A stretch of DNA of 64,000 nt from Nitrospinales bacterium (lineage in GTDB: Bacteria; Nitrospinota; Nitrospinia; Nitrospinales; JAJDAT01): contig JBHHYO010000007.1 of NCBI GenBank assembly GCA_046757665.1, positions 1,173 through 65,172 on the forward strand, written 5' to 3'. Under the pieces are notes generated by a model that made no database searches, was not told the DNA's origin, and worked only from the letters and a program-made list of their open reading frames with translations. The position numbers were made by a program, and so were the translations under genes. This document shows, in pieces, positions 1,832-63,990 of the stretch (within the stretch, counting starts at the first letter, position 1; every line of letters starts with the position of its first letter).

Positions 1832-2770
1832 TCAGCGCGACCCGCCGTTGACCCGCGTCAGGATATCCTTGTCGGAGAAGCGCGCCGCCTTTTTTTCCGC
1901 CCGGCGTCCCGCCAATGCCCGTGGAAGCCGCCCCAGCGCCATGAAAAAAGCGATCCAGAACCGGCCCTTCAGCCGCAACAGGTCGCGCACCAGAAACAGA
2001 GGAATGAAAAACAGAAACGATACCGTCATCGCCGGGTCGAGGATGTTTTTCCAAACGAAGAGATAATTGTTGCGCGCCGAGATCAGGCCGATGCGCCGTT
2101 GTTTTTCCTGCCTGCCGATAGTGCCCCGCACCTTGTGATAGGCGATGGCCCGCGGTTCGTAGCGCACTTCCCAGCCCCGCTTGAGCGCCCGGTAGGAAAG
2201 GTCGATCTCCTCGTAATACAGAGGATGATACATGGGCTCGAACCCGCCCAGTTGCAGGTAGCGCTTGCGGTCCACCATGAACGCGCCGCCGCAGGCGAAG
2301 AGGGTCTGGCTGTCGTCGTCCGGAGGTTTCTCGTAAAGATGGAAATGTCCGCGGCGAAAAAAACCGCCCCGGTTGCCGTAGAGAAAAGTTGTGCGGTCGA
2401 AATCGAAAAATTTTCCGCTGACGGCGAACACCTCGCCGTCGTCGAAATGCGCGGCCAGATGAAACAGCGCGCGTTCGTCGAGCTTGATGTCGTTGTTCAT
2501 CGGCATCACAAGGCGCGACCCGGCCAGCTTCACCGCGTAGTTGTTCGCTTCCTGGAAGCCGAGGTTGCGGGGCGTGCGTTCCCCGCGGACCGCGGGGAAC
2601 TCCCGGGCCAGCATCTCCAGACTGCCGTCCGTGCCGCAATCGTCGATCACCATGATTTCATAACTGTGGGCGGTGTCGCGCTCCACCGCCGCGATGATCG
2701 AAGGCAGGCATTCCCGCAAGAGATCGACGCCGTTCCAATTGGTGATGATGAGGGTGATGTCCGGAGTCAT
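1832..2770 (-). CDS. Family 2 glycosyltransferase
   Basis: N-terminus ITLIITNWNGVDLLRECLPSI...IMVIDDCGTDGS is typical of the GT2 (GT-A) fold. 312 aa. Confidence 0.8.
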   Translation of the reverse strand: MTPDITLIITNWNGVDLLRECLPSIIAAVERDTAHSYEIMVIDDCGTDGSLEMLAREFPAVRGERTPRNLGFQEANNYAVKLAGSRLVMPMNNDIKLDERALFHLAAHFDDGEVFAVSGKFFDFDRTTFLYGNRGGFFRRGHFHLYEKPPDDDSQTLFACGGAFMVDRKRYLQLGGFEPMYHPLYYEEIDLSYRALKRGWEVRYEPRAIAYHKVRGTIGRQEKQRRIGLISARNNYLFVWKNILDPAMTVSFLFFIPLFLVRDLLRLKGRFWIAFFMALGRLPRALAGRRAEKKAARFSDKDILTRVNGGSR

Positions 2771-2825
2771 AAATAACGTATCGGCTGTTTTGGCGCAAAA
2801 CGTAGGGATCGGACCTGCCCGATCC

Positions 2826-5663
<2,838 letters not shown>

Positions 5664-5707
5664 CGACGGGGGGTGGTCTTATTGTGGGAAACGGGTGCGT
5701 CCGTTTC

Positions 5708-7528
5708 CTATTCCTGCCCGAAAAGCCGGCGCCATTTTTCGCTGACGCGGGTTTTGATCTCCGGCGACATGGCGATTTCCTCCGGCCATCTCTGCGTGTA
5801 GCCTTTCTCCCCCTGTTTTGCGGTGGCGTCGATGCCGATGCCGCCGTCCTTGAAATGGAAGTCGCGCCCGGGGTCGAGGTTGGCGAACAATTTCCACGCC
5901 ACCGCGGAGTAATCCGTTAGTTTAACATGTTCTTCCAGGACGATGAGAATCGAAAATGTTTCCGGGGGAGTGTCCTTGAAGAAAGCCTTGATGAACTCGA
6001 CGGCCTGGCCGGGCCGCGTTTTCTCGAAAGCGGCCAGTATCACCGGATGGCGGACGTTCAGCGCCGGGATGTGGCAGTCCCTGACTTGCTTGAATTTCGC
6101 CGATATCGTTTCGAGCCGGATGGGCGGCGTTGTCCGGCCCGGCGGCGTCTGGCCGAACCCCGGTTCGCCCGCAACCCTGGCCGTGGCGTCGATTCCCAGT
6201 TTGGAGCCGTAAAGCGCCCGGTCGGAGGCGTGATTCAATACGTCCAGAATCCCCTCGGCAAAGAACAGGTCGTTTTGGAAGTCGACCTGGTTTAACAGGA
6301 TATTGACGATTTCCCCGACGTTGTGGACGTCGGTTCCGGCATCGACGACGACAATGGTTTTGACGAAACTCATCTGCCCCAGGCCCCACAGGGCGCTCAT
6401 CAGCCTGCGCGCCTGCATGGGAAACCGTTTGTCGATGGAAACGATGACGCAGTTGTGGAACACGCCCTCCAGCGGCATGTTCATATCGACGATTTCGGGC
6501 AGGTGCAGGCGCATGAGGGGCAGAAAAATCCGCTCGGTGGCCTTGCCCAGATAAAAATCCTCCTGCGGCGGTTTGCCGACGATCGTCGTCAGATAAACGG
6601 GGTTTTTGCGATGGGTGATGGCGGTGACGTGGAATACCGGGTAATCGCCGTCCTGCGAATAGTAGCCCGTATGGTCGCCGAACGGCCCCTCGGTGCGCGC
6701 TTCCGCCGGATCGATAAATCCTTCGAGGACGATTTCCGCCTCGGCGGGCACCGTCAAATCGACGGTTTTGCATTTGACCAGGGGCACCGGGGTCTTGCGG
6801 ATGAATCCCGCCAGCAGAAATTCGTCCACGCCGTAGGGCAGGGGGGCGGAGGCGGCGTAGCAGGTTGCCGGGTCGCCGCCGAGGGCCACCGCCACCTGCA
6901 TGGTTTGCTTGTGCCGCTTGAACTCGTGGAAAAAATGGGCGCCGTCCTTGTGAATATGCCAATGCATGGCCGTGGTTTTTTTGTCGAACACCTGCATCCG
7001 GTAAAGCCCGACGTTGCGGATGCGGCCGTCGAGACTGCGGTTGATCACCATGGGGAAGGTGATGAACCGTCCGGCATCGCCGGGCCAGCACTGGAGGATG
7101 GGGATGCGTTCCAGATCGACCGCCTCTCCCGTCAGCGCCACTTCCTGGCAGGGCGCGCCGCCGCTCACTATTTTCGGGGGAAAATTGGCGGCCTCCAACA
7201 GCATCGGCAACATCTTGATTTTGTCGGCGAGCCCGGAGGGTGGTTCCAGTTTCAGGAACCGCTCGATGTCCTGGGCGACCTTTTCGATATCGTTGACTCC
7301 CAGCGCGAGGTTCATCCGTTTGCGACTGCCGAAGGCGTTGATCAACACCGGCATCGTGCTTCCCCGCACCTGTTCGAAGAGCAACGCCTTGCCGCCGCCG
7401 GGGCTTTTGGACACCCGGTCGGCGATTTCCGCGATTTCCAGAATCGGCGAAACCGGTTCCCGAATTCGGATCAACTCGTTTTCCGATTCAAGCCGTTCGA
7501 TGAATTCCCTCAGGGAATGGTAAGCCAT
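5708..7528 (-). CDS. UbiD-family (prenyl-FMN dependent) decarboxylase, long ~606-aa form as seen in futalosine-type menaquinone pathways
   Basis: Start taken at [26 protein letters not shown] (ATG at 7528). UbiD-like core throughout. The upstream part of ORF 5708..7693 looks non-coding. Confidence 0.85.
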
Positions 7529-7700
7529 ATGATTCCAGGGTTGAGTTACGACAATCGCAAGGACGCCGGATGGCGGGAAGCGGTGAAAACGCATTATATA
7601 GCACACCGCCGCCGTTCCGCGAAAAAATTTGCGAACCGGATTGCATTCCCGCATGATGTTGAATAAAATTATTTTTGTGTGAACAGGCTTCAAATGGATT

Positions 7701-8444
7701 ATGAAAATGCGATTGTTATCAAACCGTTTGATGGCCCTGGGTTTCGGGCTTTTTTTGTTTTTTCTGCTGGTGGCGGCGTCGCCTCCCGGCAGTCAGGAAG
7801 CCATGGTTCTGATCCCCGGAGGCCAGTTCCACATGGGATCGAACGATCATGGCTTGGATGAGAAGCCCGTCCACGTCGTTCGCCTCGACTCGTTTTATAT
7901 GGACAAATACGAAGTGACGCAAAGGGACTTTGAGCGGGTGATGGGCAAGAACCCGTCGCGTTTCAAGGGGGCCGACCGGCCGGTGGACCGGGCGACGTGG
8001 TTTGCGGCGAAAGCCTATTGCCGCAAAGTGGGCAAGCGTCTGCCCACCGAGGCGGAATGGGAATACGCCATCCGGGGAGGAAGCAAGGGTGGCGGCTTTG
8101 GCGGATTTTGGTTCAAGGGCAACTCCAACAAGCAAACGCATCCCGTGGGCCTGAAACAACCCAACGCCCTGGGCTTGTACGATATGCTGGGCAACCTTTG
8201 GGAATGGGTGGAGGATTGGTACGGCGAGGATTATTATAAAACCGGTCCGCCGGAGAACCCCAAGGGGCCGCCCGCGGGAGAGTTCAAGGTGTTGCGCGGC
8301 GGTTCCTGGAAACTTCAAGCCAGCCTCGTCCGCCCCGCCAACCGCCTCCGGGGAACGCCCGGCAAACTCAATTATAATTACGGATTCCGCTGTGTCCGCG
8401 ACGTTACGCCGCTCAAGCACGCCGCGAGCGGCGGCAACCGGTGA
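7701..8444 (+). CDS. FGE-sulfatase (SUMF1/formylglycine-generating enzyme-like) domain protein, paralog 1
   Basis: Signal peptide, then MVLIPGGQFHMGS...FYMDKYEVTQRDFERVMG...RLPTEAEWEYA...YDMLGNLWEWVEDWY...VLRGGSW...GFRCVRD. Confidence 0.85.
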   Translation: MKMRLLSNRLMALGFGLFLFFLLVAASPPGSQEAMVLIPGGQFHMGSNDHGLDEKPVHVVRLDSFYMDKYEVTQRDFERVMGKNPSRFKGADRPVDRATWFAAKAYCRKVGKRLPTEAEWEYAIRGGSKGGGFGGFWFKGNSNKQTHPVGLKQPNALGLYDMLGNLWEWVEDWYGEDYYKTGPPENPKGPPAGEFKVLRGGSWKLQASLVRPANRLRGTPGKLNYNYGFRCVRDVTPLKHAASGGNR

Positions 8445-9538
8445 TTGCTTTGTTTATGCGCCGCGCTTGCATTCTGACCGTTTGTTTCCTGCTGACGTCC
8501 GCGCTTGCCGGTTCCCCGGCATGGGCGGCGGTCAGTAAAGTCGACGTGCCGCCCAAACAACAGTATCGTCAGTTGAAAAAACAACTGCTCAAGCAGATCA
8601 GGGCCAAGGACTATGCGGAAACCCTCAAGGCGCTGGAGGCAATCGGCAAGCTCAACATGCCCATTTCGGCGGCGTTGATTTTCGTCAAGGGCGAGGCTCT
8701 GCTACGCACCGGCAAGCCCGCCGAGGCGAAAATCATGTTGGAAAAGTACATCGGCAAGGTGGGCGATAAGGGAAAATTTTTCAACAAGGCCAGAAAACTG
8801 CTCGTCGAGGCGGAAAAAGAGGAAAAGCGTTTGCAGGCCCGGTTGCGGCGCAAAAACCAGGAACCCATGGTGTTCATCGAGGGCGGAACGTTCCAGATGG
8901 GTGAGGAAAACATGGGAAGCGTCGACAACCCTCTCCATACCGTTAGCGTCGATTCGTTCTATCTGGACCGGTACGAGGTGACGCAAGAGGAGTTTGAGCG
9001 GGTCATGGGCAGAAATCAATCCTATTTCAAAGCGCCCGACCGGCCGGCGGAACAGGTGAACTGGTTCGACGCCGCGGAATACTGCAAAAAAGTGGGCAAG
9101 CGCCTGCCCACCGAGGCGGAATGGGAATACGCCGCCCGGGGAGGCAAGAAAGGCGGCGACCCCGGTGGGTTTTGGTACCGGGATAACTCCGGAAAGGAAT
9201 CGCGACCCGTCGGTTTGCTGGAGCCGAATGCCCTGGGATTGTATGATATGCTGGGCAACGTCTGGGAATGGACGGCGGACTGGTATGACGCGGAGTACTA
9301 CCGCACCGGTTCCACCAGCAATCCCAAGGGCCCTGTCGTGGAAGAATCCAGGGGTTTGCGCGGCGCCATGCCATCCGACACGCTCGAACTGGGCCATCCG
9401 ATCAGCGTGAAGTACAAGGTTCTGCGCGGCGGGTCGTGGCGCAACAAAAAAGAGTTCGTTCGACCGGGGTTCCGCGATTACTACACGCCGGACTACCGCC
9501 GTAGCATCAGCGGCGTGCGTTGCGCCAGGGATAAATGA
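8441..9538 (+). CDS. FGE-sulfatase domain protein, paralog 2, with ~130-aa helical N-terminal extension
   Basis: The GTG at 8441 overlaps the upstream TGA (GTGA); an alternative ATG is at 8456 (MRRACILTV... signal peptide). Same FGE motif series, including RLPTEAEWEYA and YDMLGNVWEW. Confidence 0.85.
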   Translation: MIALFMRRACILTVCFLLTSALAGSPAWAAVSKVDVPPKQQYRQLKKQLLKQIRAKDYAETLKALEAIGKLNMPISAALIFVKGEALLRTGKPAEAKIMLEKYIGKVGDKGKFFNKARKLLVEAEKEEKRLQARLRRKNQEPMVFIEGGTFQMGEENMGSVDNPLHTVSVDSFYLDRYEVTQEEFERVMGRNQSYFKAPDRPAEQVNWFDAAEYCKKVGKRLPTEAEWEYAARGGKKGGDPGGFWYRDNSGKESRPVGLLEPNALGLYDMLGNVWEWTADWYDAEYYRTGSTSNPKGPVVEESRGLRGAMPSDTLELGHPISVKYKVLRGGSWRNKKEFVRPGFRDYYTPDYRRSISGVRCARDK

Positions 9539-9667
9539 TCCGTCTATTTTCCAAGGGTACGGTACAGTTTTCCGATAAATGTTTGGGTGTATGTCTACGG
9601 TAATTTGGTGAGGGCAGAACCTTAAAGCTTTGGTTGAATTTTGGAGAAAGCGTAATGAAAGGGCTTT

Positions 9668-10369
9668 ATGAATAAATTGGTTCCTGAAGTAATCTTTGAC
9701 CGATTTGCTTCCCGGCTTCGTGAAAAGGAAAACGACTTGCGATATATAATTTATGCCCCTGGTGGATGGGAGAAGTGGGCACAGTGGGAAATGTATCTTT
9801 GTTTTAAAGATTGTTTAATTCCTGTTGTCTATAACGGAGATTGGAAGGAACTCAAAAAGCAGAGCGAAGTTTTAGCGGATATTGGTCTTGAATATCCCTT
9901 TGGGGGAAGAAAAAGAAAAGGAAATATTAGACCGGATCTTTTTGTTGCCGCTGAACCGTTTTTGATAAATTGGGTAGATGTGAATAGCTGGCAGATTAAA
10001 GGTACGAATATGGAGGATCAACTTTGGGAAAAGTATGAGGAAGCCTATTGTCATTATATTGAGTTAAAAACCGAATGGTGGAATTTGAACGCTAGAAAAA
10101 AGAGCCCAAAGAAATTTTTAGAGGATATTGATAAAATTTCGAGGCAAAACTATGACACCCTCAGAAGCTATAAGCCAAAAACTTTTATGGCCATAAGCAT
10201 AGTCACCTTTTATTCTGGAAGCAAAAAACAAAAGGACGCGAAATTTGAGGATTTGATAAAAGAGATTAAAGGTTTGAAATCCAGTTTGCGCAGGTACAAG
10301 CGGCGCTATAAATTCCTCTACACCCATTTATTTGATCAAACTTTTCTCATAGGGGCCTATCGGTCATAA
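9668..10369 (+). CDS. Hypothetical protein, candidate PD-(D/E)XK nuclease fold, in low-GC islet
   Basis: 233-aa ORF at roughly 40% G+C. Motif order E35/E41 ... RPD90 ... IE132-L-K134 fits PD-(D/E)XK. I recognise no other family. Confidence 0.45.
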   Translation: MNKLVPEVIFDRFASRLREKENDLRYIIYAPGGWEKWAQWEMYLCFKDCLIPVVYNGDWKELKKQSEVLADIGLEYPFGGRKRKGNIRPDLFVAAEPFLINWVDVNSWQIKGTNMEDQLWEKYEEAYCHYIELKTEWWNLNARKKSPKKFLEDIDKISRQNYDTLRSYKPKTFMAISIVTFYSGSKKQKDAKFEDLIKEIKGLKSSLRRYKRRYKFLYTHLFDQTFLIGAYRS

Positions 10370-10380
10370 AAAAGTTCTTC

Positions 10381-10413
10381 TTGACATGGTTATCACTCAA
10401 TGATAACTATAGG
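10381..10413 (+). promoter_or_regulatory. Promoter-like TTGACA plus perfect 7-bp inverted repeat (GTTATCA-N5-TGATAAC), putative operator
   Basis: TTGACA at 10381-10386. Inverted repeat at 10389-10395 / 10401-10407, ending 8 nt before the ATG at 10416. Confidence 0.45.
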
Positions 10414-10415
10414 CT

Positions 10416-10790
10416 ATGAGCTATCAGGGACGCGATCGGAGCTTGGATACGCTTTTGGAGCTTGACGGTCAGGTTCTGGTTGTCGATCCGGCGGGCAAGC
10501 ACTGGGTGAAGTTTTCGGTCAAACAGGTTAACCCGTCCTCTGAAAAGCCGCACGGCTTGAACTATTCCTTGACCCTCCATGATGAAGCCGGACGGCGTTT
10601 GGTGGGTTTCGACAATGCTCACGCGGTGTGGTCCGGTTCGGGGCCGGGAAAGTGGGTGCGAAAACGCTACGATCACAAACACCGGTTGCGCAGGATCAAG
10701 CCATACGATTATACGAGTGCCGCCGCGTTGCTGGCCGACTTCTGGGACGAGGTGGACGCTGTTCTCAAGGAAAAAGGAATTATCGGATGA
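10416..10790 (+). CDS. DUF6516 / TumE-like putative toxin
   Basis: PHGLNYSLTLHDEAGRRLVGFDNAH...DHKH...PYDYTSAAALLADFWDEVD matches the motif pattern I remember for DUF6516. Confidence 0.65.
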   Translation: MSYQGRDRSLDTLLELDGQVLVVDPAGKHWVKFSVKQVNPSSEKPHGLNYSLTLHDEAGRRLVGFDNAHAVWSGSGPGKWVRKRYDHKHRLRRIKPYDYTSAAALLADFWDEVDAVLKEKGIIG

Positions 10791-11167
10791 GTACATTAAA
10801 GATTGGCATCGCGGGCTATGACGAGATGAAAGCCAGAACCCTGGCTATCGCACGCGGGGATCATAAACCCAAACGGGGTGAACCCAAGGTCTGGTTTACT
10901 TCCATGGAGAGTTTTGCCAAGGTGCTTTCGGACCGTAACCGGAGTCTGCTCGATTTAATCATAGCCACAAAACCGGATTCCATGGCCGAGCTTGCAACCC
11001 TTTCCGGCCGCGCTAAATCCAATCTTTCGCGGACTCTCCGCACCATGGAGCGTTATGGATTGGTGCGCCTGAAAAAGAATGCGGCCGGTCGGATTGTCCC
11101 TCGCGTCCTTTACACGGACATTGTGTTGGACGTTCCAATCGGTGCAAAAAAACCAGGTGCATCCTGA
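10787..11167 (+). CDS. Winged-HTH DNA-binding protein (HVO_A0114/MarR-like), putative cognate antitoxin
   Basis: ATGA overlap with the upstream gene. MSTLKIGIAGYDEMKARTLAIARG...WFTSMESFAKVLS...MAELATLSGRAKSNLSRTLRTMERYGLVRL. Confidence 0.65.
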   Translation: MSTLKIGIAGYDEMKARTLAIARGDHKPKRGEPKVWFTSMESFAKVLSDRNRSLLDLIIATKPDSMAELATLSGRAKSNLSRTLRTMERYGLVRLKKNAAGRIVPRVLYTDIVLDVPIGAKKPGAS

Positions 11168-11204
11168 ACATGCCGCTGGCAACAGGGTTTCGTAGAGGTG
11201 ATCG

Positions 11205-11945
11205 ATGAGAAATAAACGGCTATCGAAATTTTTGGCGGGCTGGGGGTTGATGGGTTATTTGGGCTTTTTTCTGTTCGCCGGGATTTCGTTTGCCGCCGAT
11301 GACGGCATGGTGTCGGTTCCGATGATATCGGTCCCGGCGGGGGAGTTCAAAATGGGCGGGCCGAAAAAGCATGACGGCAAGCCGATCCACACCGTGCGCG
11401 TCGATGAATTCAGAATCGACAAATTCGAGGTGACGCAGAAAGAGTTCGAGCGGGTGATGGGAAATAATCCCTCCAGGTTCAAGGGGGAAAAGCGTCCCGT
11501 GGACAGTGTGACCTGGAAAGAGGCAAACGAATACTGCGCCAAGGTGGGCAAGCGTCTGCCGACCGAGGCGGAATGGGAATACGCCGCCCGGGGCGGCGGC
11601 AAGGACGACGGTTTCGGCGCTTACTGGTACAAGGGCAATTCGGGAAAGGAAACGCATCCCGTGGGTGAAATGCCGTCGAACTCCCTGGGGATTTACGATA
11701 TGCTGGGCAATGTCTGGGAGTGGGTGGCCGACTGGTTTGACGCGGATTATTACAAGACCAGCCCGCGGGACAACCCCAAGGGGCCGGAGAACGGTACGCA
11801 ACGTGTGGCGCGTGGCGGCTCCTGGGGCGGCGCGCCGCTCAGCGTCCGCGTCTTTTTCCGCTTAAAGCTCGACCCGGCGACTCAAAACAGCGCCGTCGGT
11901 TTTCGTTGCGCCTCATCAGGCTCTTCCGGCGGTATGCTTCTGTAA
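11205..11945 (+). CDS. FGE-sulfatase domain protein, paralog 3
   Basis: Signal peptide, then the same motif series (FRIDKFEVTQKEFERVMG, RLPTEAEWEYA, YDMLGNVWEW, GFRCAS). Confidence 0.85.
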   Translation: MRNKRLSKFLAGWGLMGYLGFFLFAGISFAADDGMVSVPMISVPAGEFKMGGPKKHDGKPIHTVRVDEFRIDKFEVTQKEFERVMGNNPSRFKGEKRPVDSVTWKEANEYCAKVGKRLPTEAEWEYAARGGGKDDGFGAYWYKGNSGKETHPVGEMPSNSLGIYDMLGNVWEWVADWFDADYYKTSPRDNPKGPENGTQRVARGGSWGGAPLSVRVFFRLKLDPATQNSAVGFRCASSGSSGGMLL

Positions 11946-11984
11946 CCGGTTTGGGGTGGCAATCTCTTGACCTCCGGCAAATCC

Positions 11985-12902
11985 ATGGGGTTTTATTTTT
12001 TCAAGCGGGTGCTACAAGGCATCCCGGTACTGCTGACCGTCGCCACGCTGACCTTCTTCATCATGCGGGTGGTGCCCGGCGGGCCTTTCGACCGGGATAA
12101 AAAACTGCCGCCGGAAATCCTCGCCAACATCGAAGCCAAATACCACCTGGACCAACCGCTTTGGCGTCAGTACCTGCTTTATCTGAAACAGCTTTCCGTG
12201 GGCGATTTCGGCCCGTCCTACAAATATATCGGCAGGGATGTCGCGGACATCATCGGCGAGACCTTTCCCGTATCGCTGGCGCTGGGATTGTGCGCGGTTG
12301 CGGTGACTCTCGGTTTCGGCATCCCGGCCGGAATTTTCTCCGCGTACAAACAAAACACGGTGATCGACCGCGCCTTCATTTTTCTGGCGACGCTGGGGAT
12401 ATCGGTTCCCAGCTTTGTGCTGGGGAGTTTGCTGATTCTGCTGTTTTCCCATCACTGGCACCTGTTGCCGCCGGCGCTGTGGGAGAGTCCGCGCCATGCG
12501 CTGATGCCGGCCTTCGCGCTGGGCGCGGCTTATGCGGGGTATGTCGCCCGCCTGACGCGCTCCACGGTGCTGGAGGTGCTGGGTTCCGATTACATTCGCA
12601 CCGCCCGGGCCAAGGGGTTGAGCGAAGCCGCCGTGCTGTTCAAACATGCCTTGAAAAACGCCGTCGGCCCCGTTGTCTCCGTCATGGGGCCCATCGCCGC
12701 CGGATTGATTACCGGTTCTTTCGTGATCGAGTTTATTTTTTCGATTCCGGGAATGGGGAGCTTTTTCATCACCGCCGTGACCAATCGGGATTATCCGCTG
12801 ATCATGGGAGTGACGCTGGTGTATTCCGTGTTGATCGTTCTGGCTAATATCATCGTGGACATGGTTTACGTCTGGTTGGACCCCCGGGTTCGCATCAAAT
12901 AG
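11985..12902 (+). CDS. ABC transporter permease, OppB/DppB type
   Basis: MGFYFFKRVLQGIPVLLTVATLTFFIMRVVPGGPF... and the EAA loop YIRTARAKGLSEAAVLFKHALKNA. Confidence 0.9.
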   Translation: MGFYFFKRVLQGIPVLLTVATLTFFIMRVVPGGPFDRDKKLPPEILANIEAKYHLDQPLWRQYLLYLKQLSVGDFGPSYKYIGRDVADIIGETFPVSLALGLCAVAVTLGFGIPAGIFSAYKQNTVIDRAFIFLATLGISVPSFVLGSLLILLFSHHWHLLPPALWESPRHALMPAFALGAAYAGYVARLTRSTVLEVLGSDYIRTARAKGLSEAAVLFKHALKNAVGPVVSVMGPIAAGLITGSFVIEFIFSIPGMGSFFITAVTNRDYPLIMGVTLVYSVLIVLANIIVDMVYVWLDPRVRIK

Positions 12903-12910
12903 AGGGGCGG

Positions 12911-13735
12911 ATGATTAAAAAACTTTCCCTGTCGGCGAAGCTGAGCGCCATGACGCTTTTGGCGATTATCCTGGCGGCGGTTTTTGCTCCCTGGGTCGCG
13001 CCGCATTCCTATGAGAGCCAGGACACGCTGAACACGCTTTCGCTTCCCGGTGCCCGGCACTGGATGGGCACCGACCGGCTGGGGCGCGATTTGTTGTCGC
13101 GTCTTATCTACGGCGCCCGGGTGTCCCTGTTCGTGGGGTTTGCGACCACCCTGGTCGCCCTGTTCCTCGGCACCCTGTACGGCGCTTTTTCCGGTTACGT
13201 GGGCGGTAAAACGGATAACGTGATGATGCGGATCGTGGATGTCGTGTTCTCCCTGCCCGACTTGTTGTTGATCATCTTGATTACGGTGGTGATGGGGCGC
13301 GGCATGACCGGGATTTTTATTGCGCTGACCCTGGTCAGCTGGGTGACCGTGGCGCGGCTGGTGCGTGGCGAGGTGTTGCGCATCAAGGAATTCGCTTTCG
13401 TGGAGGCGTCACGCGCCCTGGGCGCCGGGCATGGCCGCATCCTGCTTCGGGAAATTCTGCCGAACGTTTGGGGGTTGCTGATCGTTACCTTGAGTTTCCG
13501 CGTTCCCGTGGCCATCCTGGCGGAATCGACCTTGAGCTTCATCGGCCTGGGGCTGGCCCCGCCTTTCAGCAGTTGGGGGACTCTGGCCAACGCCGGTTGG
13601 ACGGCGATCAAGTATTATCCCCACTTGATCGTGTTTCCCTCGCTGGCGATTTTTGTGACCATTTTGTCTTTTAATTTTCTTGGGGAGGGGCTGAGGGATG
13701 TTTTGGACCCTCAGTTGCGGCGGGAACGGGCTTAA
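12911..13735 (+). CDS. ABC transporter permease, OppC/DppC type
   Basis: HWMGTDRLGRDLLSRLIYGARVSL... and FVEASRALGAGHGRILLREILPN. Confidence 0.9.
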   Translation: MIKKLSLSAKLSAMTLLAIILAAVFAPWVAPHSYESQDTLNTLSLPGARHWMGTDRLGRDLLSRLIYGARVSLFVGFATTLVALFLGTLYGAFSGYVGGKTDNVMMRIVDVVFSLPDLLLIILITVVMGRGMTGIFIALTLVSWVTVARLVRGEVLRIKEFAFVEASRALGAGHGRILLREILPNVWGLLIVTLSFRVPVAILAESTLSFIGLGLAPPFSSWGTLANAGWTAIKYYPHLIVFPSLAIFVTILSFNFLGEGLRDVLDPQLRRERA

Positions 13736-13910
13736 CGGCGTTTATTAACTTTTTTTTAAAAGCCCGCGTCTCTCCGTGGTCATCTTATTTTCATAACCAC
13801 TTGGCCGATAAATCTAAAAAGAGGTGGGATGAGTGGGTTTCCCGGCGCGATGTTTTTATATCCTTTTGATTTTATTAGGATTATAATAGGGTGTGGGGAA
13901 AATAAAAAAA

Positions 13911-13939
13911 TTGACATCTGGAAATAATCGTTATAAAGT
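13911..13939 (+). promoter_or_regulatory. Sigma-70-like promoter candidate
   Basis: TTGACA at 13911-13916. TATAAA or TAAAGT follows 15-17 nt downstream. About 50 nt upstream of the ATG at 13990, in an AT-rich spacer. Confidence 0.4.
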
Positions 13940-13989
13940 AGCCCAATTTTATGTGCGGTTTTTTCGTGATCTTCTGAAGGAACGGCTTT

Positions 13990-14292
13990 ATGAGTCCGAT
14001 CAAAGAAGACCTGATAAGCGCCATCATTAGCGCTTCCCAAGCCAATCTTCTCGGCATTAACAAAGGGGCGGGCAAATCCTATTCCGACGAGCATGAGCAG
14101 GATGTGCTGGATTGGATCAAGGCCAACGCGGCGACTTACCGCAGGCATTTCGGCGCCCGTCTGCAATTGTTGCCCGAGAATGAACTGGGAATCATTTTAA
14201 AGCAAGTGACGTATTCGACGAAAGACGTCGGGGAAATTTTGCATGACGGCATGTTTTTCCCATCCGTAAAAAGGCAAAGAAGCCATCACTAA
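13990..14292 (+). CDS. Hypothetical protein (100 aa)
   Basis: ORF with AAGGA 8 nt upstream. Helical-looking sequence with no recognised motif. Preferred over the overlapping antisense ORF 13780..14166. Confidence 0.4.
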   Translation: MSPIKEDLISAIISASQANLLGINKGAGKSYSDEHEQDVLDWIKANAATYRRHFGARLQLLPENELGIILKQVTYSTKDVGEILHDGMFFPSVKRQRSHH

Positions 14293-14316
14293 AAAAGGAC
14301 GGCGTTTTCGTTGATC

Positions 14317-14847
14317 ATGGAAAAAACTTCGCCCCCCCCAAAAAGTTCTGACGATCAAGCCGCCACCCCTCCGCCAAAACCCGCGGCGGCCAAACCAGCC
14401 GCTGTCCCCAAAGTTGCAAAAAAACCAGCCAAACCCAAGGAACCGTTGATTGACAACGGCGACGGCACCGTTTCCGATCCCAACTCCGGCCTGATGTGGA
14501 AAAAATCCGATGCCTGGCTGGATACCAAGAAGTTTTATACCTGGCCCTCGCATCAGGAGTATGTGGACAAAATCAACAAGGAAAAATTCGCCGGATACGA
14601 CGATTGGAGGATTCCTTCCAAGGCCGAGGCGTTGACCCTGTTTGACAAGACCAAAAAATGCCTGGACAAAAACGGCAGTGAGTTTTTTGTCGATCCCGTT
14701 TTTGAAGCCGGCGGCGCGGGCAACACCTGGATCGTCGAGAGTTCCGATGAAAGTATTACCCGTTACGACTGGAAGACGGGCGTCGATACTTCTTACGGCA
14801 CGGCGGAAATCTGGGCTTCCATGCGGCTGGTGCGAAAACCCCAGTAA
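14317..14847 (+). CDS. DUF1566 (Lcl C-terminal domain) protein with Pro/Ala/Lys-rich N-terminus
   Basis: DNGDGTVSDPNSGLMWKKSD...YDDWRIPSKAEALTLFD is typical of DUF1566. ATG at 14317. Confidence 0.7.
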   Translation: MEKTSPPPKSSDDQAATPPPKPAAAKPAAVPKVAKKPAKPKEPLIDNGDGTVSDPNSGLMWKKSDAWLDTKKFYTWPSHQEYVDKINKEKFAGYDDWRIPSKAEALTLFDKTKKCLDKNGSEFFVDPVFEAGGAGNTWIVESSDESITRYDWKTGVDTSYGTAEIWASMRLVRKPQ

Positions 14848-14900
14848 GCGTTCCTGCCTTTTTCCCATCCATTGACAGAACACCCCGGCGGCCGATAGCG

Positions 14901-62187: not shown

Positions 62188-62493
62188 TCAGGCCTTGGCC
62201 GAGTCTATTGTCTCCAGCGAAGAGGTTAAGACGACATATTCGGGCATCTCGGTTTTTTCCGTGGATGTTTGCGGAACGGGTGAGGATGTGAATGGAGGCT
62301 CAGCCATTTCCTGAATAAATTTTTTCGGAGACAATTTGTATTGTGTACAGATTCCGACCGCCTCCCGCCAGGTTTTGGCATAGGAAACTCCGGCGCCATT
62401 GGCGATTCGGTAGAAATAGCCTTTGAGGATCATGGCGTAATCCATGACATGTTCTTCGTGGGAATTGTCGATGTGAAGCCGTTTGATCAGCAC
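62188..62493 (-). CDS. Hypothetical protein (101 aa)
   Basis: ORF with protein-like composition and no recognised motif. Start uncertain. Confidence 0.35.
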   Translation of the reverse strand: MLIKRLHIDNSHEEHVMDYAMILKGYFYRIANGAGVSYAKTWREAVGICTQYKLSPKKFIQEMAEPPFTSSPVPQTSTEKTEMPEYVVLTSSLETIDSAKA

Positions 62494-62971
62494 GTTTGGA
62501 TCCTCTAGGTCAAAGGTTAGTTCAGTCAGTCGTGTTTGTCACAAGAACGGCATAATGGCCTTTATGCAATGGCCGTTGGGCGGCAATTTTAAACCTTCAC
62601 AGAAAAAGTCTGCCCAGGTTGAAAAATCTGGACAAATTTACGCTATCTGCTTGAAAAAAGTCAAGACAAAGCTTTGAATTTTTAGAATTAATAAAAACCG
62701 ATTGTGAAAAGACAGGGTGACTGCGATGCTGTTCTCCCGCAACAAGTCGGCCGATATTTGATTTTGTCAGGCGTAACCTTTTTAACGGATTGAAAGTCAT
62801 TAAAAGAGGTGGCGAAAACCGGTTTTTGGGAAGATGCGCTGAATGATTTTTAACAAACATGGTCAATTTTGTTTCGGTTTCGGGACTCAAATATAATATT
62901 AAATATTTAAAAAAAGTATTTTATCATAAATTTCAATGTGTTAGAATAAATTTGTTTATTCGTTTTTTAGA

Positions 62972-62987
62972 TGGTACAGAGTTTGCT
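62972..62987 (+). promoter_or_regulatory. Sigma-54 type -24/-12 promoter (TGGTAC-N5-TTGCT)
   Basis: tggtacagagtttgct. GG at 62973-74 and GC at 62985-86. Embedded in an AT-rich spacer about 100 nt upstream of the OmpA/Pal-like gene. Confidence 0.5.
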
Positions 62988-63087
62988 TTTTGAGAATTGC
63001 CTTGTACATCATGAAACGGGAGCATACTTAATTTGATATAAAATAGATATGAATTAGCCATTAATGACAAACCATACGGAGTTAATT

Positions 63088-63990
63088 ATGATGGAAATTA
63101 AACACTTTTTTCAACAAAGAATAGCGATTTTCACGATTTTATCGGTGGTGGCCGGATTGGGGATTACTGCCGGTTGTGCCAAGAAGCCTCTGGCGCTCCA
63201 CCCTCCGCAAGTGCAGTCAACAACGCAATCGGGGGGTGGCGCAAGTCAAACCGCCTCCGCCTCTGCCGCCAGGACGACCGGAGAAACTATGGACTCCGCG
63301 ACCGGCGGGCAGTCTGACCAGTGGTTGGTGGGGATAGAAGAGGAGACCTTGACGGAAAGCGGCGCTGTGGCTCCTTCTTCCGGTTCAAAAGACTCTTCGA
63401 GTAAAATGGCGATGACTGCCGACGGTTCGCGTTCCGGCGCCGGTGAAAGCTCCACTTTGGGCGCCGCGATGCGAGGCAAGGGTTCCCGATTCGGTGGTGC
63501 GGGAGCCCCGGTTGTGGGCAAAGGTTCCCGGTCCGGCGGGTTGGGCGATTTTGCGTCGGGAAGAGCGAAAAAAGGCGGAAAGGTGCGGATGAGCAAAATG
63601 TTGCCCTTCCGGTCGACGCGCGCGCTGGATGACGTGCATTTCCAATTTGACAAATACGATCTGGATGCAACGTCCAAGGCGATTTTGCAAAAAAACGCGC
63701 AGTGGCTCAAACAGCATCCGGGCGTCAAGCTCGAAATACAAGGCCATACTGATGAACGCGGCACCAACAATTATAATCTGGGCCTGGGAGAACGCCGCGC
63801 CCAAAGTGTCAAAAACTATTTGCTGGCTTTGGGTATCGACAAGAGCCGGCTGTTCGCAATCAGTTATGGAGAGGAAAAACCTTTTTGCCTGGAGAGCAAG
63901 GAAAACTGCTGGTGGCAGAACCGGCGGGGGCATTTCATGGTTTCCGCTCCTCGAAACAACCGGGGCGAGGTGTTCGGCATGTTGCCTTGA
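63088..63990 (+). CDS. OmpA-family peptidoglycan-associated lipoprotein (Pal-like) with ~150-aa Gly/Ser/Ala-rich linker
   Basis: GGAG 6 nt upstream of the ATG at 63088 (the ORF opens at 63064). Lipobox GITAGC. C-terminal FQFDKYDLDATSKAILQKNAQWLKQHPGVKLEIQGHTDERGTNNYNLGLGERRA. Confidence 0.85.
   Translation: MMEIKHFFQQRIAIFTILSVVAGLGITAGCAKKPLALHPPQVQSTTQSGGGASQTASASAARTTGETMDSATGGQSDQWLVGIEEETLTESGAVAPSSGSKDSSSKMAMTADGSRSGAGESSTLGAAMRGKGSRFGGAGAPVVGKGSRSGGLGDFASGRAKKGGKVRMSKMLPFRSTRALDDVHFQFDKYDLDATSKAILQKNAQWLKQHPGVKLEIQGHTDERGTNNYNLGLGERRAQSVKNYLLALGIDKSRLFAISYGEEKPFCLESKENCWWQNRRGHFMVSAPRNNRGEVFGMLP

Follow-up and report, generated by a model that had tools for sequence, protein, structure and literature searches.

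The PD-(D/E)XK superfamily of nucleases, which includes EcoRV, HincII and BglI, is built around a common core in which an acidic residue on the first helix, an aspartate at the start of a strand and an ExK pair on the next core strand are followed by a helix-strand crossover. In Type II restriction-modification systems the nuclease is accompanied by an adjacent cognate methyltransferase, whereas the stand-alone, Mrr-like (Type IV-like) nucleases, which have a presumed PD-(D/E)XK core, act without one and are found in defence islands. We describe here a candidate nuclease gene, ORF233, that lies in an AT-rich islet within 64,000 nucleotides of a metagenome-assembled Nitrospinales bacterium genome (contig JBHHYO010000007.1, positions 1,173 to 65,172; referred to below as the window). 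ORF233 has the same order of helix-1 acid, strand-start aspartate, ExK and helix-strand crossover as EcoRV, HincII and BglI, and it is likewise a single domain of about 235 residues, AT-rich, rare, and situated in mobile or defence islands. It differs from them in that sequence, profile and Foldseek searches link it significantly to none of the superfamily's members, in the 42 residues (an inserted hairpin plus helix) that separate the D and ExK half-motifs, in the additional invariant residues E75, Q39 and D153, and in lacking a cognate methyltransferase. On balance, and with slightly better than even confidence, we favour the reading that ORF233 is a horizontally acquired gene for a single-domain, metal-dependent PD-(D/E)XK-type nuclease of a rare and unnamed family, which acts autonomously and has a role in genetic conflict; the composition, the indel, the family with its invariant residues, the confident model with its element order and the neighbourhoods are observed, and from them we infer what fold the protein has, that it is a nuclease, what it cuts and what part it plays in the cell.

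ORF233 (9668–10369, plus strand) encodes 233 residues and is the only long open reading frame (ORF) in the islet, and its product is listed at NCBI, with an identical sequence, as 'hypothetical protein ACE5G9_02495 [Nitrospinales bacterium]'. The G+C content (GC) in sliding windows falls to 36–40% over approximately 9500–10400 compared with 55–62% on both sides, and the gene itself has 37.7% GC relative to about 58% in the flanking genes. The departure is also evident at third codon positions (GC3), at 39% in ORF233 versus 73–75% in the adjacent FGE and permease genes. Relative to all 702-bp windows of the 64 kb, the GC of ORF233 has a z score of -3.6, and an equally low value is seen in 0.5% of them, exclusively at the ORF233 site or at 62.4–63.1 kb. 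A first-pass annotation, made from the sequence alone, had described a drop in GC and counted 24 G or C among the first 60 coding nucleotides; windowed GC and GC3 bear out the first statement, and the count is exact. The compositional anomaly is confined to 9539–10415 and includes an AT-rich leader upstream of ORF233 (9539–9667, plus strand, 41% GC), in which we found neither a sigma-70-like match on the plus strand nor similarity to the upstream regions of homologs.

The islet is one part of a larger insertion, which is revealed by comparison with two metagenome contigs (L104 and L105) that were recovered in a homology search with FGE2, the gene to the left of the islet, and that carry an 85% identical FGE2 ortholog (P0047). 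These contigs share with the window the gene order UvrA, UbiD, FGE1, FGE2, FGE3, two permeases, small ORFs, Lcl_C and DnaJ, with an overall nucleotide identity of about 89%. By blastn, window positions 2001–9538 align with L104 positions 2145–9667 at 89.5% identity and positions 11205–14874 align with 9723–13412 at 88.2% identity, and L105 behaves in the same way. With both relatives the alignment stops precisely at the FGE2 stop codon (9538) and restarts precisely at the FGE3 ATG (11205), and the intervening block of 1,666 bp (9539–11204, no strand assigned) is represented in the relatives by a 55-bp FGE2-FGE3 spacer, no remnant of which was found within the block. At the borders of the block we found no direct or inverted repeats, att-like repeats, tRNA, integrase or Rfam element. 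The islet thus combines a presence/absence polymorphism relative to L104 and L105 with a deviant composition, as seen in the GC3 of ORF233. These two contigs carry the comparison; a search seeded with FGE3 among GTDB species representatives returned 80 loci, the most similar at 52% identity and none of them syntenic, which were of no use for detecting the indel, and an exact-sequence look-up of FGE3 gave no match.

The inserted unit is ORF233 plus a TumE-TumA toxin-antitoxin (TA) pair. The first-pass annotation had drawn the islet at 9540–10415, which is apt for the compositional anomaly but too narrow for the insertion, because the relatives lack all of 9539–11204, the TA pair included; its suggestion that 9540–11204 might be an indel was sound, since L104 and L105 carry only 55 bp there. 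Because the foreign composition is restricted to ORF233 and its short flanks and the TA genes are host-like, the block may be a composite, or its parts may differ in age. Horizontal acquisition, as had been proposed, is shown not by composition alone but also by the absence of the block from two syntenic relatives and by the family to which ORF233 belongs, whose genes are elsewhere uniformly AT-rich and located in accessory islands.

That family is small. An exhaustive profile search of 1.84 billion proteins yielded 37 representatives, 26 of them at E <= 1e-10, and all public copies are labelled 'hypothetical protein'. We aligned 26 full-length members, which have 21–46% identity to ORF233 and in which both the N-terminus and the full length are conserved. 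Family genes are always AT-rich (26–41% GC), and never exceed the GC of their flanks. Eight columns are invariant (E35, Q39, P52, E75, D90, E132, K134 and D153) and H129 is nearly so. Five of the eight are acidic and one is the lysine of the ExK motif, and such a pattern speaks for an active site, not for a structural core. The codons of the proposed catalytic residues are at 9770–9772 (E35), 9935–9937 (D90), 10061–10063 (E132) and 10067–10069 (K134). The first-pass annotation had read a PD-(D/E)XK signature into E35/E41, R88-P89-D90 and I131-E132-L133-K134 of a single 233-residue ORF. All of these residues are where it placed them, and D90, E132 and K134 are invariant across the 26 divergent members, although E41, R88 and P89 are variable and cannot be counted with the motif. 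The conditions that it had set for its own refutation included a lack of homologs and a lack of conservation of D90, E132 and K134, and this alignment shows neither. We also note that two large proteins, P0030 (1827 residues) and P0037 (1083 residues), contain 13 matches each to the C-terminal region of the profile (positions approximately 183–230, a helix plus beta-hairpin); these are probably unrelated repeat proteins.

It might be argued that ORF233 is no gene but an open frame that arose by chance in non-coding, AT-rich sequence, given that its annotation is only 'hypothetical protein' and that no promoter-like site was found upstream. We give this explanation a negligible probability. Homologs that match over the full length at 21–46% identity turn up in unrelated contexts and share both the invariant residues and the two ends of the protein, and the family alignment yields a confident structure prediction, and by these observations a chance ORF is effectively refuted.

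The structure prediction places the invariant residues in a recognizable arrangement. An AlphaFold2 model of ORF233 computed with the family alignment has a pLDDT of 88.5 and a pTM of 0.87; an earlier model from three sequences (pLDDT 54) was too poor and was not used. In the model, a helix spanning residues 34–44 holds E35 and Q39, E75 is at the end of a strand (72–74), and D90 lies just before a further strand (91–94) that is followed by the inserted hairpin and helix. E132 and K134 are within a long strand (127–139), and D153 is on a helix (148–159) that leads into a final strand (169–182). The modelled succession, alpha-beta-beta-beta-alpha-beta, is that of the PD-(D/E)XK core, and the proposed catalytic residues occupy the elements on which such a core carries them. 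The invariant E35 lies on core helix 1 of the model, D90 at strand 2, and E132 and K134 on strand 3.

Several results weigh against this assignment. None of the 26 members gave a match in Pfam, NCBIfam, PADLOC or PHROGs, and the Pfam models of the PD-(D/E)XK clan gave none even at E <= 10. Searches of the Protein Data Bank (PDB) with the family, by sequence and by profile, were empty, in keeping with the earlier impression that ORF233 belongs to no other recognizable family; none of Pfam, NCBIfam, PADLOC, PHROGs and PDB sequences matches ORF233 itself. Among the described defence proteins of PADLOC-DB v2, no family matched it at E <= 1. Relatives were likewise absent from the curated phages, plasmids and IMG/VR contigs searched, and no separate DNA-reading domain was recognized in the protein. 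Foldseek returned no significant match (E <= 1e-3) in the PDB or in BFVD, with best E values of 0.17 and 0.013 respectively and TM-scores no higher than 0.31. Alignment of the family profile with hhalign gave a probability of 0.2% against EcoRV, and of less than 1% against both a 50-sequence profile of T7 endonuclease I and lambda exonuclease, and thus no sequence-profile link to the superfamily was obtained. Finally, the D90-to-E132 spacing is 42 residues with the inserted hairpin and helix, and spacings between the D and ExK motifs are usually 10–30 residues in this superfamily.

The weight of these results is uneven, however. The hhalign negatives count for little, because the positive control, T7 endonuclease I against lambda exonuclease, both of them true members, itself scored only 0.6%. 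The EcoRV query was confirmed as identical to PDB 1eo3, but EcoRV has no viral relatives and the relatives of lambda exonuclease in IMG/VR are all 98–100% identical, such that neither offers a usable profile. The sub-threshold Foldseek matches are also instructive, in that they include the PD-(D/E)XK enzymes EcoRV, HincII and BglI, the SFTSV L endonuclease and CidB in the PDB, and herpesvirus UL24, RecE-like proteins, Exo V and phage proteins labelled 'PD-(D/E)XK superfamily' in BFVD, although the top of the list is also rich in Rossmann-type methyltransferases and histidine-kinase ATPase domains.

These same data bear on whether ORF233 could instead adopt another, perhaps new, alpha/beta fold and serve as a metal-binding enzyme or a binding protein, in which case the E...D...ExK pattern would be coincidental and nucleic acids would not be cut. 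A confident model (pLDDT and pTM as above) that nonetheless has no structural neighbour at E <= 1e-3 in either database would be expected of such a protein, as would the many methyltransferase and ATPase-domain matches, the lack of any profile or hhalign link to a PD-(D/E)XK family, and the unusually long D-to-ExK spacing. Against it, the invariant residues fall on exactly the PD-(D/E)XK core elements and in the right order, five distinct PD-(D/E)XK proteins from the PDB and at least four kinds from BFVD recur among the weak matches, the failed control deprives the negatives of much weight, and the defence and mobile-element neighbourhoods described below suit a nuclease. We regard a different fold as unlikely. 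In the structural evaluation that the first-pass annotation had called for, residue and element order agree with the superfamily, and Foldseek gave no significant match. With no significant structure match, no profile link and a long D-ExK gap, a PD-(D/E)XK nuclease fold is probable for ORF233, at good but not high confidence from the model, and is not established.

The neighbourhoods of family members provide a second line of evidence. In 12 independent neighbourhoods no partner gene is conserved, and family members stand alone, usually within defence, TA or integrative-element islands. One such context includes an integrase, rolling-circle Rep, a GajB-like helicase, XRE and WYL regulators and a transposase; another has an integrase, RadC, a DUF87 ATPase and two ParE pairs; a third has ParB, a resolvase, a DinG-like helicase and an SNase; and others contain an ISL3 transposase with an M78 peptidase, or a zeta toxin. 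The gene for P0002, the nearest homolog (45% identity), and one for a ThsB-like TIR protein (PADLOC PDC-S66/ThsB) are divergently transcribed, 146 bp apart, at two loci (L001 131–2122 and L002 724–1680). We considered a two-gene TIR-plus-nuclease system and rejected it, as the pairing is confined to that one lineage. A three-gene ORF233-TumE-TumA module was similarly rejected, as TumE was not found in any other family context and no other member has it nearby. We also observe that at L095 (5801–7980) a Type I HsdS gene is separated from the family member by two genes that encode 366 and 360 residues, neither with a Pfam or PADLOC match; these two are on the same strand as the family member with overlaps or short gaps, and may be in an operon with it.

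A methyltransferase is not adjacent in 11 of the 12 contexts, nor in the window, where the neighbours are FGE and TumE/TumA genes. The sole nearby example is a Type I HsdM that has its own HsdS, with HEPN-MNT and GIY-YIG genes in the same island. This distribution is central to deciding whether ORF233 is an orphan Type II restriction endonuclease, the remnant of a restriction-modification (RM) system whose methyltransferase has been lost or is elsewhere in the genome. A single domain of about 235–260 residues, rarity, AT-richness, a patchy distribution and E-D-ExK residues are all typical of Type II enzymes and all are seen here; an island that carries a Type I methyltransferase and specificity subunit has a family member at its end, and the weak Foldseek matches favour the EcoRV, HincII and BglI lineage. 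The adjacent methyltransferase that characterizes Type II systems is nevertheless missing in the window and in all but one of the contexts, the exception is part of a Type I system that has a specificity subunit of its own, and a Type II enzyme without protection would kill the cell that carries it, yet the frame is uninterrupted and is conserved family-wide. We therefore consider an RM remnant quite improbable.

Mrr-like nucleases offer a parallel in life style, with the same autonomy from a methyltransferase, the same association with defence islands and a presumed PD-(D/E)XK core. ORF233 differs from Mrr in having no recognizable modification-reading or winged-helix DNA-binding domain, and no similarity to Mrr-type Pfam or PADLOC models. 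The proposal in the first-pass annotation of a stand-alone defence or restriction component fits the neighbourhoods, by association only, and there is no cognate methyltransferase.

The absence of partners is also what would be expected of a selfish single-gene mobile cassette, in which the nuclease aids its own spread or retention in a homing- or addiction-like manner and does not serve host defence. In one lineage (L100 and L098), the family gene forms a solitary low-GC islet amid plain housekeeping genes, inserted between a radical-SAM gene and a gene for a Cys/Met PLP enzyme. There, a 43-nt direct repeat (copies 86% identical, at L100 2246–2288 and 3158–3200, and at L098 2844–2886 and 3756–3798) flanks a 912-bp AT-rich unit that contains only the family gene. 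The copies contain the palindrome AGGTTCGAACCT, and the repeat may be an att-like duplication. The window copy is similarly a solitary AT-rich islet between housekeeping genes and adjoins an addiction module. However, the window copy has no flanking direct or inverted repeats, the islets of different members have no conserved termini in common, a flanking repeat is limited to a single lineage, and most copies are in larger islands that could carry them passively. A purely selfish cassette consequently seems rather improbable to us.

Under the favoured reading of an autonomous PD-(D/E)XK-type nuclease, E35, D90, E132 and K134 would form a classic acid/acid/lysine site that binds Mg2+ and activates water for phosphodiester cleavage, with E75 and D153 serving as extra metal or substrate ligands. 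The protein would act alone, with neither a conserved partner nor a cognate methyltransferase, and its gene, an AT-rich cassette of one gene, would move into islands of defence, toxin-antitoxin and integrative-element genes. In the present genome it would have arrived with or beside TumE-TumA, entering the tandem FGE array between FGE2 and FGE3. Genetic conflict is its most likely role, whether it cuts invading DNA or acts as a selfish or abortive effector, and a housekeeping function is unlikely.

The ORF233 family is most likely a previously undescribed sequence family within a very well-known superfamily, and if so, an unannotated family is added to the restriction-endonuclease-like nucleases. 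A more far-reaching version is a tentative possibility: that these are an undescribed family of autonomous methyltransferase-less nucleases that form a single-gene immunity or addiction cassette, mobile as an AT-rich unit of about 0.9–1 kb, with a core that is too divergent for current structure and profile searches and that may elaborate the restriction-enzyme fold in a new structural way or have a fold of its own. The finding is modest in that hypothetical nuclease-like genes are common in defence and accessory islands and no new mechanism is required. Nonetheless, the small size of the family proteins (about 235 residues, one domain) makes them directly testable for anti-phage or anti-plasmid activity or for a new cleavage specificity, and the locus offers a clean and dated case in which a very small foreign cassette has settled, along with a TumE-TumA addiction module, in a spacer within a tandem gene array. 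It is found in Nitrospinales, an uncultured lineage of marine nitrite oxidisers with few characterised mobile elements.

TumE-TumA systems constitute a translation-targeting toxin-antitoxin superfamily that has been defined and experimentally validated (PMC10584680). In the window, the TumE-family toxin gene (10416–10790, plus strand, 55.7% GC) encodes 124 residues matching PF20126 (E = 4e-8, 33.6 bits relative to a cutoff of 23.4), and the TumA-like winged-helix-turn-helix (HTH) antitoxin gene (10787–11167, plus strand, 52.6% GC) encodes 126 residues matching PF25212, HVO_A0114 (E = 8e-19, 67.6 bits relative to 27.6), with MarR/IclR-type HTH matches as well. The start codon of the latter was taken from the frame of an ORF at 10628–11167; its ATG lies within the TumE stop (ATGA), giving the 4-nt overlap of a bicistronic TA pair. 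A TumE (DUF6516) toxin domain and an adjacent DNA-binding antitoxin are thus present in one operon, and the predicted function is that of a TumE-TumA system. ORF233 stands outside this system, as the TA pair has host-like GC and a promoter/operator-like element of its own (10381–10407, plus strand). This consists of TTGACA at 10381–10386 and a perfect 7-bp inverted repeat, GTTATCA-CTCAA-TGATAAC, at 10389–10407, which ends 8 nt upstream of the TumE ATG. Judging from its sequence and position, the element is probably the autoregulated promoter/operator of TumE-TumA, and the transcript may be leaderless or have a very short leader.

The block is bounded by FGE2 on the left (8441–9538, plus strand; PF03781, E = 4e-51), whose stop codon is the left breakpoint, and by FGE3 on the right (11205–11945, plus strand; PF03781, E = 7e-54), whose ATG is the right breakpoint; Pfam E values for the flanking FGE-sulfatase paralogs range from 1e-51 to 1e-57. 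A further FGE-sulfatase-domain paralog, FGE1 (7701–8444), overlaps FGE2 by 4 nt, and the tandem array of three is retained in the relatives (L104 7835–10448). The placement of the islet between second and third paralogs and directly upstream of a TA-like module, as first annotated, agrees with the PF03781, PF20126 and PF25212 matches. FGE2 has an additional N-terminal region of about 140 residues with weak similarity to TPR.

A second indel distinguishes the window from its relatives, between Lcl_C and DnaJ, where 18 bp (14875–14892) correspond to approximately 281 bp in the relatives (L104 13392–13709). The relatives' segment contains an ORF of 105 residues on the minus strand with no Pfam match. 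The sole other stretch of the window as AT-rich as ORF233 (62200–63100, down to 35.8% GC) contains only small ORFs of 97–101 residues and lies between a gene for a TPR/trypsin-like protease and an OmpA-like gene. Closer to the FGE array there is a low-GC patch (40–42%) at 13700–14300 with an ORF of 100 residues (13990–14292), also with no Pfam match; unlike ORF233, it is conserved in both L104 and L105, and is therefore not a recent acquisition.
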